From Patescibacteria group bacterium (lineage in GTDB: Bacteria; Patescibacteriota; Minisyncoccia; Phycocordibacterales; PALSA-1337): a stretch of DNA of 64,000 nt. The translations under genes and the position numbers were made by a program. The notes below the pieces were generated by a model that ran no database searches, was not told where the DNA came from, and was given only the letters and a program-made list of their open reading frames with translations. The stretch's first letter is position 1; every line of letters starts with the position of its first letter. This document shows, in pieces, positions 1,613 through 31,752 of this stretch. The DNA lies in contig JANLHG010000014.1 of assembly GCA_024654575.1 (NCBI GenBank), positions 24,745 to 88,744 on the forward strand, read 5' to 3'.

Positions 1613-2864
1613 CTTCTAGTCCCCACAACGTCAAATCATTCTTATTTATAAAAATAAGATAGTTATCTTTTTCATCAAGTGAAAGATTTATTGCATCTAT
1701 TTCTTGATTAGTAAGGTCTTTTAATTTTGCTAATTGTGTCAGTTCCCCATTTAGAGTATTAAGTTTCCAGATATCATCACTAAAATGCACCTTACCTTTA
1801 TACCAATCATCTGGATATTCGGCAGTTTTTGAAGATGTTGGATTAGCACAATAAATATCAGTTTTTACAAAATTTCCCCAAACACATTTTTCTGGGAAGG
1901 TTTTTAATAGAAGAGCTTCTTTTTCACCAGTTTTTACATCATAAAGCTGTAGGCTAAAATCATTTTGATTAGATTGACTATAAAGTATCTTATTTCCATC
2001 ACTATTAGCTAAAGTTGTTAGTCCTCTAATTTCTCCGATAGCTTTACTATAGTTACCGGTTTTTGTATTTAAAAAATAGGCATAACCAGAACTTTCTGCT
2101 GAGGGTTTGGTTGTGATGAGTATTTCACTGTCACTAAACCACTGTGTTAACCAGTTTTTAAAAGGAGAACTAAATATTTCTGTCTTTTGTGTTCCGTCTG
2201 CTTTAGAAATAATTCCATTTATTCCATTGCTATTTTCTTGAGTATAGAACATAAAATCTTTTTTAGGAGAAATACTGATTTGTTTTATGTCTTTTGGTAA
2301 AAAATTTCCAGTAACTGTTGTTTGCATGACGTTAATTAATGCAGTGGAGGTTGCGTTTTTTATAGGGATTATTTTTCCATAATAGCTTTCAATATAACTT
2401 TCGTCATCATTGGCGTATCTTATTACGAAGGAATTATTGTTTACCCATAAAGCTTCGTATATTTTAGGTATGGTTATGTTTGATATTCTAGTTTGATTTA
2501 AAGAATCGCTAACCGCTTGATAGATGTGTCCCGTTCCCCGCTCTGTGTAACGAATAGCTGTGGTACTTCCATTCCCTGTTGAAAAAGCTATAGCTCCCGC
2601 TGTTGGAACGATAGAAATCTGTCGGAGTTTTGGAACAGAAGTGCCGTTTGCTGTTTGGTAATTATCAGAATTATTAGCTGTTCCGTTTTCAGAAGAACTT
2701 ACTGAGTTTCCATTTCCGAATGGAAAGATATTTTTTGTGGTGCTAGCTATTTTTTCAGGTGTGGGTGTTACTCCTTTGTTTAAATAATAATAGATAAAAC
2801 TAAGGAATCCTCCCAGTATGATGATTGCCAATATGATTATTAAAAATACACTTTTTTTAGACAT
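1605..2864 (-). CDS. Hypothetical membrane-anchored extracytoplasmic protein (last gene of the T4SS-like operon)
   Basis: N-terminal TM helix (FLIIILAIIILGGFLSFIYYYL) followed by a Ser/Thr/Asn-rich region and a large domain with no recognisable motif. Its stop is convergent with yidC. Confidence 0.4.
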   Translation of the reverse strand: MSKKSVFLIIILAIIILGGFLSFIYYYLNKGVTPTPEKIASTTKNIFPFGNGNSVSSSENGTANNSDNYQTANGTSVPKLRQISIVPTAGAIAFSTGNGSTTAIRYTERGTGHIYQAVSDSLNQTRISNITIPKIYEALWVNNNSFVIRYANDDESYIESYYGKIIPIKNATSTALINVMQTTVTGNFLPKDIKQISISPKKDFMFYTQENSNGINGIISKADGTQKTEIFSSPFKNWLTQWFSDSEILITTKPSAESSGYAYFLNTKTGNYSKAIGEIRGLTTLANSDGNKILYSQSNQNDFSLQLYDVKTGEKEALLLKTFPEKCVWGNFVKTDIYCANPTSSKTAEYPDDWYKGKVHFSDDIWKLNTLNGELTQLAKLKDLTNQEIDAINLSLDEKDNYLIFINKNDLTLWGLEVN

Positions 2865-25471: not shown

Positions 25472-26017
25472 TTATTCCACTATTTTTACTTTTCGTTCTC
25501 TTTGTTGAGTACCACCCAGTAGATATTTTCTAGGATTATTATCAAGGTCAATGAAATCGTCGGCTGCTTCTATGAGTTTTGATGAAGTTGATTTACCAAA
25601 AGAAATAACTTCCACCTGACAACCTTCGTTTATTTTTAAATATTCTACAAGAGGTATAAAATCGCCGTCACCCGTAATTAAAATCACCGTATCAAGCTTT
25701 GGAGCTAATTTTATGGCATCAACTGCTAGTCCTACATCCCAATCAGCTTTTTTTGAGCCACTAGAGAAAATTTGTAAGTTTTTTGTTTTTGTTTCAATAC
25801 CCATCTTAAGAAGAGCTTCAAAAAATGCTTTTTCATCCCCTGCTTCAGTGGTAATTACATAAGCTACTGCACGAATTAACGCTCTTCCAGCTACAGCATC
25901 TTTAACTATTTGACCAAAATTTACTCGAGCGTTATATAAATTTCTTGCACAATGATAAAGGTTTTGAGTGTCTATAAAAATTCCTACTCTCTGCTCCTTA
26001 TGTTTAATGACTGACAT
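25472..26017 (-). CDS. NYN/LabA-like domain protein
   Basis: VGIFIDTQNLY ... ITGDGDF is the NYN/LabA signature. Inserted between rpsO and pnp. Confidence 0.65.
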   Translation of the reverse strand: MSVIKHKEQRVGIFIDTQNLYHCARNLYNARVNFGQIVKDAVAGRALIRAVAYVITTEAGDEKAFFEALLKMGIETKTKNLQIFSSGSKKADWDVGLAVDAIKLAPKLDTVILITGDGDFIPLVEYLKINEGCQVEVISFGKSTSSKLIEAADDFIDLDNNPRKYLLGGTQQRERKVKIVE

Positions 26018-26351: not shown

Positions 26352-27242
26352 ATGTCGCACAATATCTTAGACTTAAAAATGCAGTTTTTGGAATACGTAG
26401 AAATTGAAAAAGGTCGTAGTTTGAACACTATACGCAATTATGATCATTATTTAACTCGTTTTATAGAATATTCTAAAATATCTCAACCAAAACAAATCAA
26501 TGAAAATCTCATTAGAGACTACAGATTATGGTTAAATAGGCAGAAAGGAGAAGAAAGTTTTTTGAAGAAAAAAACTCAAAATTATTATCTAATCGCTCTT
26601 CGTTCTTTTTTAAAGTATTTAACTAGACGCGGTATAGTATCTCTTTCTTCTGAGTATATTGAGTTAGCAAAAGTCCCGGAACGATCGCTTGACCTTATAT
26701 CTATGGATGAATTATCTAGACTGATGAAAGCAACAGATGGCGATGACTTAAAAAGCTTGCGAGATAAGGCCATATTGGAATTATTATTTTCTACAGGATT
26801 ACGAGTATCGGAATTATGTTCTTTACCTAGAGAATTAAACTTAAAATCAGATGAAATATCTATTCGTGGTAAGGGGGAAAAAGTTAGGGTAGTTTTTTTA
26901 TCAGATGATGCTAAGCAATCTGTTAAAAAATATCTTGATAAAAGAAAAGATATGGATGACGCTCTTTTTGTTCAAATGAGAACAGCTTCTAGGCTTACTT
27001 CTCGTTCAATTGAGAGAATTATAAAATATTACGCAATTAAGGCTGGAATTTCAAAAAAAGTTACACCCCACATTATTCGTCACAGTTTTGCTACTGACTT
27101 ACTTAGAAATGGTGCTGATTTACGTTCAGTTCAAATGCTTTTAGGTCATGCTAATATAGGGACAACTCAAATTTACACCCATATTACCGATAAAGAATTA
27201 CGAAATGTGCATAAGAAATTTCACAATAAGTCTTCTACTTGA
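26352..27242 (+). CDS. Tyrosine site-specific recombinase XerC/XerD-like
   Basis: C-terminal catalytic box HIIRHSFATDLLRNGADLRSVQMLLGHANIGTTQIYTH. Confidence 0.8.
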   Translation: MSHNILDLKMQFLEYVEIEKGRSLNTIRNYDHYLTRFIEYSKISQPKQINENLIRDYRLWLNRQKGEESFLKKKTQNYYLIALRSFLKYLTRRGIVSLSSEYIELAKVPERSLDLISMDELSRLMKATDGDDLKSLRDKAILELLFSTGLRVSELCSLPRELNLKSDEISIRGKGEKVRVVFLSDDAKQSVKKYLDKRKDMDDALFVQMRTASRLTSRSIERIIKYYAIKAGISKKVTPHIIRHSFATDLLRNGADLRSVQMLLGHANIGTTQIYTHITDKELRNVHKKFHNKSST

Positions 27243-27787
27243 CCCACGAGACCTGTTGCCTCTCCTTGAAAACCAGTAACATTACCAATTAAACCACTGA
27301 CATCTCCTTCTATATTGGTTACAGTTCCATTGATATTACTTATATCTCCCTTTAAGTCGGTCACATTTCCTTCAATATTCTCAACATTTCCCTTTATATT
27401 ACTTATATTTCCCATAAGATCACTAACATCTCCACTAATATTAGAAACATCTCCCCTTATATCGGTTACACTTCCAGTTATATTACTAACATTCCCTACT
27501 ATTCCAGATAAGTCACCTGTAATTTTAGTTATATCGCCTTTTATATTAGTTAAATCTCCACGAATATGAGTTACATCTCCACTAGTATTAGAAACATCTC
27601 CTAATATCCCAGATATATCACCTTTAATTTTACTCGTATCTCCAGTAATTTTGTGCATACTGACATCTCCATAAATATTAGTCACATTTCCTCTTAAATA
27701 TTTAAAATCACCCCAAATGTTGTTATGAAGCCCAGTTACATACTCAGTATTCTTTTTTGTGTGTTCACGAATGTATGAAATAGTCAT
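27221..27787 (-). CDS. Heptapeptide-repeat protein (about 23 tandem 7-aa units, consensus I-x-G-D/N-V/I-S/T-x)
   Basis: 21-bp periodicity is visible in the DNA from about 27260 to 27700. The 188-aa ORF has no signal peptide. Its 3' end is convergent with xerC and overlaps it by 22 nt. Confidence 0.45.
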   Translation of the reverse strand: MTISYIREHTKKNTEYVTGLHNNIWGDFKYLRGNVTNIYGDVSMHKITGDTSKIKGDISGILGDVSNTSGDVTHIRGDLTNIKGDITKITGDLSGIVGNVSNITGSVTDIRGDVSNISGDVSDLMGNISNIKGNVENIEGNVTDLKGDISNINGTVTNIEGDVSGLIGNVTGFQGEATGLVGQVEDLL

Positions 27788-27802
27788 GATATGATTATAT
27801 CA

Positions 27803-28601
<799 letters not shown>

Positions 28602-30437: not shown

Positions 30438-30509
30438 GCACCCATAGTGAAATGGATATCATACCGGTCTTCGGAACCGTTGTTCCAGGTTCGAATCCTG
30501 GTGGGTGCA
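30438..30509 (+). tRNA. tRNA-Arg (anticodon TCG)
   Basis: Cloverleaf folded by hand: acceptor GCACCCA/TGGGTGC, anticodon loop CTTCGGA, T-arm CCAGG-TTCGAAT-CCTGG. There is one C:U mismatch at 27:43. Confidence 0.75.
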
Positions 30510-30511
30510 CT

Positions 30512-30582
30512 GCGGGTATGGTTTAGTGGTAGAACACGTCCTTGCCAAGGATGAGACGGGAGTTCGATTCTCCCTACCCGCA
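30512..30582 (+). tRNA. tRNA-Gly (anticodon GCC)
   Basis: Acceptor GCGGGTA/TACCCGC, anticodon loop TTGCCAA, T-loop TTCGATT. Confidence 0.88.
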
Positions 30583-31109: not shown

Positions 31110-31182
31110 CGGAGTGTGGTGTAACGGTTAACATTCCTGTTTTGGGAACAGGCGACTCAGGGTTCGAATCCCTGCACTCCGA
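31110..31182 (+). tRNA. tRNA-Pro (anticodon TGG)
   Basis: Acceptor CGGAGTG/CACTCCG, anticodon stem CCTGT/ACAGG with loop TTTGGGA, T-arm CAGGG-TTCGAAT-CCCTG. Confidence 0.88.
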
Positions 31183-31681: not shown

Positions 31682-31752
31682 GCGGGATTAGTTTAGTGGT
31701 AAAACAACAGTTTTCCAAACTGTGGTCGGGAGTTCGATTCCCCCATCCCGCA
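31682..31752 (+). tRNA. tRNA-Gly (anticodon TCC)
   Basis: Acceptor GCGGGAT/ATCCCGC, anticodon stem ACAGT/ACTGT with loop TTTCCAA. There is one A:C mismatch in the T-stem. Confidence 0.85.

Follow-up and report, generated by a model that had tools for sequence, protein, structure and literature searches.

The question raised by the junction between xerC and xth in this genome is whether the tandem 21-bp repeats lying there encode a protein and, if so, what fold and role that protein has. The window analyzed is a 64,000-nucleotide stretch of a Parcubacteria/Patescibacteria (CPR) genome. The reading that we favor, at a probability of roughly 45%, is that the repeats encode a fixed-length cytoplasmic rod of heptads, leaning slightly toward a coiled coil and serving as a scaffold or binding protein. 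The features of the locus, in window coordinates, are as follows.

26352..27242, plus strand: xerC-like tyrosine recombinase gene, convergent with the repeat gene, 22-nt overlap (conserved context).
27221..27787, minus strand: complete CDS of a 188-aa heptad-repeat protein (ORF list, codon-usage score, and orthologue comparison).
27315..27569, plus strand: shadow ORF of 84 aa, not a gene (negative codon-usage score in all plus-strand frames).
27794..27802, minus strand: putative extended -10 promoter element TGATATAAT (same 9-mer at the same distance in orthologous loci L116 and L117).
27804..28601, plus strand: exodeoxyribonuclease III gene (xth), divergent from the repeat gene (conserved context).

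The minus-strand heptad ORF is a real, selected gene. Its frame alone had a positive codon-usage score (+56), the other five frames ranging from -30 to -203. Ser at heptad position 6 is encoded by both AGT (7) and TCT (4), and all four Gly codons are used; this codon diversity, together with the codon score, indicates that the minus-strand frame is under selection at the amino-acid level. The 84-aa ORF on the plus strand, which the initial annotation had kept in view as a possible product, exists but scores negatively, and its translation, rich in Pro/Leu/Ser/Phe, is what the repeats give when read in antisense. Other elements of that annotation held up, namely a minus-strand heptapeptide-repeat gene with an invariant Gly (borne out by the ORF, codon score, and heptad table), a 21-bp periodicity, units that have diverged in DNA, and a convergent 22-nt overlap with the xerC-like gene, within whose 3' end the stop codon of the repeat gene falls. 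Inspection of the product, MTISYIREHTKKNTEYV, revealed no visible signal peptide, as had been noted, and no hydrophobic segment. The computed pI of the 188-aa product is 4.65. Exact-sequence look-up in public assemblies returned no record of an identical protein.

The protein consists of a short lead and two blocks of heptads, encoded as follows.

27740..27787, minus strand: nonrepetitive N-terminal lead, aa 1-16, MTISYIREHTKKNTEY (conserved in orthologues L116 and L117).
27656..27739, minus strand: heptad block 1, four units, aa 17-44, including the N-cap-like VTGLHNN and IWGDFKY (heptad table).
27650..27655, minus strand: two-residue register skip His45-Lys46 between the heptad blocks (Gly register shifts by 2).
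27230..27649, minus strand: heptad block 2, twenty uninterrupted units, aa 47-186, followed by C-terminal Leu-Leu (heptad table and L117 alignment).

Altogether there are 24 heptads of the form [IL]-x-G-[DN]-[VI]-[ST]-x, arranged 4 + 20 around the two-residue skip; tandem repeats had been recognized earlier, with a count of about 23 that the heptad table corrects. Residues at the seven positions are I16/L5, variable, G24, D13/N6, V14/I4, S11/T9, and N10/G5/D4, so that Gly is present in 24 of 24 units. DNA identity at lag 21 was 0.535, compared with 0.332 +/- 0.019 (maximum 0.389) in 1000 codon shuffles, and autocorrelation of the protein sequence peaked at multiples of 7. TRF reported periods of 21, 63, and 105 bp, with 61% matches at period 21; the 63- and 105-bp periods were considered as coil lengths and rejected, given unequal block sizes and no super-period at the protein level. 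Pairwise identity of units by codon position was 0.54/0.67/0.46, or about 55% for the DNA as a whole.

The repeat gene is lineage-specific cargo in a variable junction. Its surroundings follow a conserved order, PNPase-NYN-S15-XerC-Xth-CCA, across 80 related Patescibacteria loci; a xerC-like gene lies upstream of xth in 51 of these, and xth is 69-79% identical across the 80 related loci listed. The XerC-Xth gap is only 7-26 bp in 14 related loci and holds unrelated cargo elsewhere. A heptad gene was found at the junction in 0 of the 80 loci, and the repeat gene occupies the same position on two metagenomic contigs (L116 and L117). These comparisons mark the xerC-xth junction of this CPR genome as an accessory-gene hotspot. 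An origin in a prophage or integrative element, considered on account of the adjacent xerC, was rejected because this xerC is a conserved syntenic core gene. The immediate neighbors are conserved housekeeping genes and are uninformative on function. An Rfam scan of the window returned tRNAs only.

In the 16-nt spacer between the divergent starts of the repeat gene and xth, the 9-mer TGATATAAT ends 6 nt before the ATG, and it is identical and equally spaced from the ATG in all three loci, including that of L117 at 53% GC. An element of the -10 type only 6 nt from the ATG predicts a leaderless mRNA. By general sigma-70 promoter geometry, the repeat gene is thus probably expressed as a leaderless transcript from a conserved extended -10 promoter. 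A generic promoter and terminator scan gave no more sites than shuffled sequences and missed this element, since it is not accompanied by a -35 element and the scan looks for two hexamers.

Comparison with the orthologues bears on the stability of the repeat number. The complete orthologue L117 is 74% identical to the repeat protein and has 24 units, which align unit for unit without a gap (0 indels). pS between the two genes is 0.99, so that synonymous sites are saturated for dS, and dN is 0.19. L116, which comes from Hainich-type groundwater, is 92% identical over 63 aa, and the MHK skip is identical in L116 and L117. Heptad positions 2 and 7, which vary among units, are 62-75% conserved between orthologues. 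An identical set of 24 units without any indel at saturated synonymous divergence argues that this is not a copy-number-variable locus, contrary to the suggestion of a rapidly evolving one; rather, it is an example of a unit number frozen over long divergence. The product is acidic and cytoplasmic, and its length is fixed at 24 structurally equivalent heptads.

Homology searches placed the protein in a family defined here as proteins sharing the heptad G-[DN]-[VIC]-[ST]-x-[LI]-x at E<=1e-8. A search with the single protein retrieved 86 homologues, with best scores down to 1e-29, and a subfamily profile retrieved 952 at E<=1e-8, nearly all of them unnamed. The family unit consensus is G100/D65/V65/S71/G59/L55/R30, and one-residue insertions occur in about 5% of units. 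In the repeat protein, the lead-in motif G.H..[IL].G[DN] is present as VTGLHNNIWGDF, followed by the 24 units with invariant Gly. The N-terminal lead precedes the family N-cap motif VTGLH..IWGDF, is modeled by AlphaFold as a helix at aa 2-18, and has counterparts in two other members (P0001 and P0056). The short phage subfamily A2/A3 carries a C-terminal cap, G[DN]vD.C.[IL]T..[DE]R..G[IV]....L[IV]. The repeat protein has the N-cap only and lacks this C-terminal cap, ending in GLVGQVEDLL straight after the last heptad, which places it in the broad family and outside the capped subfamily.

The family is large, and neither Pfam nor NCBIfam has a model dedicated to it or an entry that its members share, including in a Pfam scan of 31 homologues. 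The initial annotation had named two observations that together would count against it, a repeat count identical across strains and a known-family match; the former was seen in L117 and the latter was not found. Literature searches on GDVSGL-type motifs and on heptapeptide repeats in phages returned no description of the family. A passage in PMC2275737 cites Rhizobium PlyA/PlyB glycanases with a 'novel heptapeptide repeat' (Finnie et al. 1998).

Family members on viral contigs were sought by a DNA pattern scan. The examined phage members belong to replication/recombination modules instead of virion modules, with positions between ERF and YqaJ; beside SprT, primase, and helicase; or beside SSB. 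Annotated functions among 61 neighbors of phage members include ERF, ligases, helicase, methylases, and exonuclease, and no head or tail protein was found among the 61. One family member is fused to an AriA/PtuA-type defense ATPase. No meaningful defense-model match came from PADLOC, which gave nothing for the orthologue or P0027 and, for the repeat protein, PbeC at a marginal E 7e-4 (16 bits). A tblastn search with a short capped member against cultured-phage records returned just two uncultured records. Around 1000 unnamed proteins, mostly metagenomic, share a simple, recognizable signature; none has a described function, and the phage members, some in tandem paralogue arrays, lie in the modules just described. 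With this signature and the replication/recombination setting, structural and anti-defense screens have a defined target in the family.

The fold was approached from the spacing of the hydrophobic residues. Position 1 is I/L in 21 of 24 units and position 5 is V/I/L in 20 of 24, and this 3/4 spacing would give a continuous core and an elongated rod. The initial annotation had held that positions 1 and 5 do not fit a coiled-coil a/d pattern; their 4/3 spacing is in fact that of a and d once the register is shifted to a=V5 and d=I1, and the proposed full register would be a=V, d=I/L, f=G, and g=D/N. Its argument against a coiled coil is further undercut by the PDB comparisons. The repeat protein matched gp26 (2.3e-7), 8qox (1.6e-6), and a trimeric autotransporter (TAA) stalk (4e-3) by sequence; the family profile matched gp26 (1e-7), cavin-1 (4e-5), and fibritin (4e-3). 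Every PDB sequence or profile match is a trimeric alpha-helical coiled coil (gp26, cavin-1, fibritin, sigma-1, and the TAA stalk). In a bona fide trimeric autotransporter (P0090), G[DN]VTxLx heptads fill the stalk position after the neck, and they can be aligned with the solved stalk segments of Hia and Ata. A core with beta-branched V/I in both positions reportedly favors trimers, as found by Harbury and colleagues in 1993. We lean slightly toward a rod that would be parallel, probably trimeric, and coiled-coil-like, as in phage fibers and autotransporter stalks. On these alignments, the similarity to solved coiled coils is weak and driven by periodicity.

The composition of the repeats points away from a helix. 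Helix formers make up 19% of the repeat protein versus 36-60% of the matched solved coiled coils, Gly accounts for 17% versus 0-7%, and the mean helix penalty is 0.59 versus 0.41-0.45 kcal/mol per residue. A second Gly occurs in 54-59% of family units. Position 2, which would be exposed, is rich in R/S/T/W/Y with Ala at 0.6%, and conservation extends to five of the seven heptad positions, among them b, f, and g, which would also be exposed. Two runs of monomer AlphaFold2 placed no helix in the repeats (pLDDT 40-77, means 58.5 and 59.1); neither composition nor prediction was thus helix-compatible. The invariant Gly, the turn-rich composition, and these low-confidence nonhelical models make a helical fold doubtful. 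If the protein is nevertheless a trimeric coiled coil with Gly in every heptad, it would extend the known sequence limits of coiled coils and explain the recurrent G-[DN]-V-S-x-L motifs of phage fibers and adhesin stalks.

Two further tests were applied. D/N occupies position g and R/K is frequent at e, and the choice of Asp or Asn at g was uncorrelated with R/K at e' (OR 1.10, p=0.43). Residue matching at position 2 at lags of 2 and 3 heptads equaled that in shuffles (z +0.4 and -0.4), with local decay over distance, and a lag-2 signal was present at position 7 (z +5.5). The lack of a super-period of 2 or 3 heptads at the variable position fits a rod of equivalent heptads. Neither the g-to-e' coupling test nor the solenoid super-period test lent support to the fold it addressed.

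The strongest competitor, which we regard as a serious if somewhat less probable reading, is that the heptads form a nonhelical, turn-rich repeat: a beta-roll or beta-solenoid, a trimeric beta-helix, or a beta-turn spiral. G-[DN] and position 7 (G/N/D) would then be turns and I/V the core, each coil taking up two or three heptads, like those of YadA-like heads or of the ice-binding protein of Lolium, or consecutive turns V-S-G-L and L-R-G-D following one another in a spiral. The beta-solenoid or beta-roll of the initial annotation survives in part: the composition, far outside that of the matched coiled coils, and the two AlphaFold runs keep a nonhelical fold alive, and no solenoid profile matched. 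Turn and beta formers are placed as this reading expects, with D/N directly after the invariant Gly, G54/N10/D9 at position 7 in the family, and a position 2 that favors beta formers and aromatics and nearly excludes Ala, Glu, and Gln. Short family members have discrete, solenoid-like N- and C-caps, modeled at pLDDT 72-82, and one-residue insertions are tolerated. The top Foldseek entries were all beta-solenoids, though nonsignificant: the low-confidence model gave nothing below E=4 in the PDB or below 0.1 in BFVD. Heptad-based beta-rolls do exist, in 3ult and in TAA heads.

Against a nonhelical repeat, the PDB sequence and profile matches included no beta-solenoid, and similarity to 3ult was negligible (E=0.51). 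Pentapeptide, hexapeptide, RTX, and YadA_head models (PF00805, PF00132, PF00353, and PF05658) were absent from Pfam scans (E<=10) of the repeat protein and 31 homologues. Residues 3/4 apart would face opposite sides of a simple beta-strand, no ladder super-period was seen at position 2, and the G[DN]VTxLx heptads of P0090 lie in a coiled-coil part of its stalk. AlphaFold usually models solenoids well, and the repeats reached only pLDDT 40-77. A nonhelical repeat would be a fold absent from solved structures, and a new one that monomer AlphaFold2 does not model with confidence.

A broader proposal, unlikely but worth stating, is that the GDVSGLR heptad forms a fold absent from the PDB and marks an overlooked and very large family of phage early proteins engaged in phage-host conflict, of which the CPR copy would be a fixed-length representative domesticated long ago. 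The fold would be a compact spiral or roll with two tight turns per heptad and an I/V spine, possibly oligomeric. The phage early proteins would diversify through unit number and tandem paralogy, and members would bind, or mimic substrates of, DNA-processing and defense enzymes.

A virion or cell-surface fiber, adhesin, or ice-binding protein, as first suggested for this gene, is very improbable. It has in its favor matches to PHROG 19577 ('minor head protein', 2e-13) and a tail-needle PHROG (1.4e-9), tblastn matches to tail fibers, fibritin, and minor capsid proteins, and the similar heptads of adhesin P0090. However, the phage matches are heptad coiled coils only 23-32% identical to the repeat protein, which indicates shared periodicity and not orthology. 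Of the named profiles, PHROG 19577 (from SPO1-like Bacillus phages) and Baculo_PEP_C of Pfam (PF04513) scored best; the Bacillus phage proteins are only 24-25% identical, and Baculo_PEP_C scored 42.6 bits against a cut-off of 38 for the repeat protein and 31.4, below it, for L117, matching only 1 of 31 homologues. Membership in either was rejected, as both scores stem from heptad periodicity and an AT-rich composition. A signal peptide, an anchor, and a secretion partner are all lacking, the examined phage relatives belong to early/DNA-metabolism modules, and the E value for 3ult speaks against ice binding.

A repeat-containing RiPP precursor, TigB-like and modified by a radical SAM enzyme, is effectively refuted: the NCBIfam RiPP_TigB match (NF047709, 34.8 bits, E 1.2e-8) reaches half the curated cut-off of 70, 188 aa far exceeds the 68-position model, the flanking xerC, xth, S15, NYN, and CCA enzyme genes include no radical SAM gene, peptidase, or exporter, and unit-by-unit conservation bespeaks a folded protein. 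A hypervariable contingency locus or a spurious ORF from a noncoding tandem repeat is scarcely credible despite the tandem 21-bp periodicity, the 5-35 units of family members, and the paralogue arrays in phages, since units only ~55% identical in DNA are poor slippage substrates, the codon evidence reflects selection on amino acids, and for this lineage the gap-free L117 alignment already refutes contingency. The repeat protein is neither a surface fiber nor a contingency locus.

For the favored fixed-length rod, positions 2 and 7, being variable, would offer a binding surface specific to each unit, and with such a surface the protein would serve other macromolecules as a scaffold of defined length or as a binding partner. 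DNA-processing proteins would be the likeliest partners, because of the locations of the phage relatives. It is from this context that we infer a scaffold or binding function.

Among known systems, the closest solved structures are P22 gp26 (4lin/2poh), T4 fibritin (1aa0/1avy), the Hia/Ata stalks (3emo and 3wpo), and cavin-1 HR1 (9eg6/4qkv). The repeat protein resembles trimeric coiled-coil fibers in having V/I at a, L/I at d, frequent G at f, and D/N at g. In the fibers, however, only some heptads contain Gly and Ala/Gln/Glu/Lys abound at exposed positions, whereas in the repeat protein Gly is invariant and Ala is about 1%. Unlike the fibers, it is also small and cytoplasmic, with phage relatives in nonvirion contexts. 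The Lolium perenne ice-binding protein (3ult) has the consensus xxNxVxG with two heptads per coil. It and YadA-like heads share with the repeat protein a seven-residue unit, an invariant Gly whose register aligns, a hydrophobic residue two places ahead of that Gly, and an Asn/Asp/Ser/Thr-rich composition. They are secreted and have one inward hydrophobic residue per heptad, whereas the repeat protein has two at 3/4 spacing, no export signal, and no two-heptad super-period. Pentapeptide (Qnr/MfpA) and hexapeptide left-handed beta-helix proteins are likewise acidic, with short tandem repeats of conserved small or turn residues and aliphatic residues, but their period is 5 or 6 instead of 7, and the repeat protein yielded neither a Pfam match to them nor a confident AlphaFold solenoid. 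Pentapeptide-repeat proteins mimic DNA in acting on DNA-processing enzymes, and a comparable role would suit the phage members, given their DNA-metabolism context.

The repeat gene lies on the minus strand at the xerC-xth junction, and the following features of the window are referred to below.

25472-26017, minus strand, NYN-domain gene flanked by the genes for PNPase and ribosomal protein S15
26352-27242, plus strand, xerC-like gene
27221-27787, minus strand, heptad-repeat ORF of 188 aa (ORF listing), convergent with the xerC-like gene
27804-28601, plus strand, xth
30438-30509, 30512-30582, 31110-31182, and 31682-31752, plus strand, four tRNA genes shortly downstream of the gene for the CCA-adding enzyme

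Rfam hits across the entire window comprised nine tRNAs only.

The ORF had been described initially as a gene of tandem 21-bp units encoding a heptapeptide repeat, and this was confirmed; the initial interpretation was supported in part. DNA identity at a lag of 21 nt was 0.535, compared with 0.332 ± 0.019 in codon shuffles (maximum, 0.389; n = 1,000), with further self-identity peaks at lags of 42, 63, 84, 105, and 126, and Tandem Repeats Finder reported periods of 21, 63, and 105 bp. The protein (pI 4.65) contains 24 heptads, four at aa 17-44 and 20 at aa 47-186, separated by a two-residue skip, His45-Lys46. The consensus is I/L, a variable residue, G (24/24), D/N (19/24), V/I/L (20/24), S/T (20/24), and N/G/D (19/24).

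The plus-strand 84-aa ORF and the 22-nt convergent overlap with xerC were both present, as initially annotated. With neighboring housekeeping genes as the codon-usage reference, only the minus-strand frame had a positive log-likelihood (+56; other frames, -30 to -203). Conserved Ser codons are AGT in seven units and TCT in four, all four Gly codons are in use, and half of the identical-residue pairs between units have differing codons. The codon score and mixed Ser and Gly codons therefore indicate selection on the amino-acid repeat in the minus-strand frame. The plus-strand ORF is its antisense shadow. The start codons of the repeat gene and xth, which are divergent, lie 16 nt apart, and this spacer holds a perfect extended -10 element, TGATATAAT, that ends 6 nt upstream of the repeat-gene ATG. 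The identical 9-mer occurs at the same ATG distance in two orthologous loci, one at 53% GC. Applying standard sigma-70 promoter geometry to this element, we infer that the transcript of the repeat gene would be leaderless.

The window has a GC content of 33.5%, and its Xth is 69-79% identical to Xth in the 80 best-matching loci, mostly Patescibacteria/Parcubacteria MAGs (e.g., Taylorbacteria, Nomurabacteria, and Paceibacterota). The genes keep a conserved order, PNPase-NYN-S15-XerC-Xth-CCA, and 51 of the 80 loci have XerC upstream of Xth. The XerC-Xth gap is only 7-26 bp in 14 loci and reaches 5.4 kb elsewhere among the 80, with unrelated cargo that includes a MazF-like toxin and antitoxin (L032), an XRE-type HTH protein (L010), methyltransferases (L017, L042, and L083), and lipoproteins (L064 and L079). 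In the window, the gap is 561 bp (27243-27803) and is exactly filled by the repeat ORF; none of the 80 Xth-matched loci encodes a heptad-repeat protein. Given the conserved gene order, the variable gap, and this absence, the repeat gene is cargo specific to its lineage, located in a variable xerC-xth hotspot. Across Parcubacteria (loci L007-L086 compared), this junction is a hotspot for accessory genes. Of the 80 loci, 46 retain the NYN-domain gene at 66-83% identity, and on that basis it seems to be a core member of this RNA-turnover cluster in Parcubacteria.

Scanning metagenomes with the non-repetitive lead-in EYVTGLHNNIWGDF, in back-translated form, recovered two contigs carrying orthologs. 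L116 (33% GC) encodes a CCA enzyme 86% identical to that of the window, an xth gene, and the N-terminal 63 aa of the repeat protein (92% identical), with repeat gene and xth divergently arranged as in the window. On L117 (53% GC), a complete ortholog of 193 aa is convergent with a partial xerC (3' part, 81% identical), and the start of xth (87% identical) lies 14 nt away. The repeat proteins of the window and L117 match at 140 of 188 positions (74%) without an indel and share both the 24 units and the skip, even though synonymous sites are saturated (pS 0.99; dN 0.19). This rules out, in this lineage, the earlier suggestion of a rapidly evolving locus; a copy-number-variable or contingency locus was rejected on the same comparison. 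Positions 2 and 7, variable within the protein, changed between orthologs in only 9/24 and 6/24 units, so that every unit has retained an identity of its own. Such a pattern speaks for a protein of defined length that bears a specific surface.

Two further features of these contigs were observed. Between L117 (1,420 bp) and window 26352-27840, the GC content of xerC-repeat-xth differs by 20 points (33% vs 53%), proteins are 75-87% identical, and essentially all synonymous sites are changed, which amounts to a strong shift in composition between CPR lineages that are related. The L116 Xth (1879-2649, minus strand) is only 44% identical to that of the window, except for the first ~13 and last ~12 residues. 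Set against its neighbors (86% for CCA and 92% for the repeat N-terminus), these conserved ends suggest recombination inside the ends of the gene, in which the resident xth was exchanged for a divergent allele.

A single-protein search retrieved 86 relatives (best 1e-29, 50% identity), a short-subfamily profile 952 proteins at E ≤ 1e-8, nearly all unnamed and metagenomic, and an exhaustive profile search 4,932 cluster representatives at E ≤ 1e-3, a set that includes genuine coiled coils. The family consensus (1,625 units) is G100, D65/N25, V65 (C9), S71/T23, G59, L55/I38, and R30/S17/T12/W8. Many members are 90-135 aa long, with a basic N-terminus, 5-10 heptads, the lead-in Y.Y..G....G.H..L.GD, and the C-terminal cap G[DN]vD.C.[IL]T..ER..G[IV]....L[IV], of which the window protein has the lead-in and lacks the cap. 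Member scans found no common Pfam or NCBIfam family: Baculo_PEP_C matched the window protein (42.6; threshold, 38), scored 31.4 for the ortholog, and was absent in others scanned. Most members scanned matched PHROG 19577 ("minor head protein"), and the Bacillus phage proteins behind it are only 24-25% identical. The family motifs appeared in no paper of the literature searched. No dedicated database model or literature was found for this large family. The repeat gene adds a new member, and arguably a new variant, to the heptad-repeat rod proteins.

Cys occupies the core Val position in about 9% of family units. In a G-D-C-S/T-x-L-x variant (L006:5965-6366, MW202691.1; P0088, P0171, and P0190), the replacement occurs in every unit, and a metal- or disulfide-stabilized core is possible. 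Beside P0001 (60% GC), the closest database homolog, contig L120 (1265-1675 and 1-150) encodes a different repeat protein with pentapeptide-like units (GATVKGNLWLTGATVKGNLWLEG...). The two ends of this 1.7-kb contig carry one and the same sequence, raising the possibility of a circular or tandemly assembled element.

On phage-like contigs, members lie between ERF and a YqaJ exonuclease; beside SprT, primase, and helicase genes; near ParB and DNA ligase; or near methylases, upstream of a portal gene. In a complete podovirus genome, a member adjoins SSB. IMG/VR viral contigs of 6-115 kb also carried the repeat in a pattern scan, with unit counts of 5 to 35. On some contigs, two to five paralogs form a tandem array: five adjacent genes at L087:3559-6314 (8-19 units each), three in L004, and two each in L099 and L110. 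The L087 paralogs, on one phage-like contig, all have an MNRILRRI...YHY.NGQ lead-in. Among the 61 immediate neighbors scanned, all functions with an annotation belong to DNA metabolism (ERF, ligases, helicase, methylases, exonuclease, SbcC-like, DnaA_C, and sigma factor), and none is a head or tail protein. Two longer relatives have other architectures. P0097 (784 aa, metagenomic) has heptads at aa ~167-258 fused upstream of an ABC-type ATPase that matches the defense models PARIS AriA (5e-22) and Septu PtuA (1e-16). P0090 (1,157 aa) is a bona fide trimeric autotransporter adhesin (TAA) with ten YadA_stalk matches, head, and anchor; near-identical GDVTTLQ/GNVTTLQ heptads directly follow each neck motif in its stalk segments.

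A cytoplasmic, acidic protein of fixed length with a unit-specific conserved surface and relatives among phage recombination and replication genes suggests, from context, that the repeat protein may act as a scaffold or binding partner of DNA-processing or defense proteins. The surface, adhesin, or ice-binding role proposed at first is contradicted by the absence of head or tail proteins among the 61 neighbors scanned and of similarity to the heptad beta-roll 3ult, the Lolium perenne ice-binding protein. A RiPP precursor reading was contradicted by a specific test.

We conclude that equivalent heptads, with I/V at the core, build an elongated rod. On the fold, the evidence conflicts. For this one-Gly-per-heptad member of the family, we lean slightly toward a coiled-coil-like trimer (probability roughly 0.45), and a novel turn-rich, non-helical repeat is only a little less likely. 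Several observations count against a helix: Gly is invariant in the window protein, and a second Gly occurs in 54-59% of family units; compared with the matched solved structures, helix formers make up 19% (vs 36-60%), Gly 17% (vs 0-7%), and the mean helix penalty is 0.59 (vs 0.41-0.45) kcal/mol. The would-be exposed position 2 is only 0.6% Ala and rich in R/S/T/W/Y, position 7 is G/N/D, and Asp vs Asn at g is uncoupled from Arg/Lys at e'. Two AlphaFold2 runs (31- and 93-sequence alignments) placed no helix in the repeats, at mean pLDDT of 58.5 and 59.1 (repeats, 40-77; short-member caps, 72-82). Other results count against known beta-solenoids, the kind of fold initially guessed: neither profile nor PDB searches matched the window protein or family to them, similarity to 3ult is absent, and the heptads show no ladder periodicity.

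A further set of observations favors an alpha-helical, probably trimeric, coiled coil. The initial annotation had argued against a coiled coil through a register error: positions 5 and 1 are spaced 3/4, as a and d. The absence of a multi-heptad super-period in the heptads also counts for this reading, and beta-branched residues at both core positions favor trimers. In P0090, the G[DN]VTTLQ units begin right after the neck motif DAVNGSQLYATN, a site that we take to be the start of the coiled-coil stalk in TAA architecture, and they align with solved Hia and Ata stalk segments. All PDB matches of the window protein and family profile are trimeric coiled coils, namely P22 gp26, cavin-1 HR1, T4 fibritin, reovirus sigma-1, a TAA stalk, and an archaeal stalk protein.
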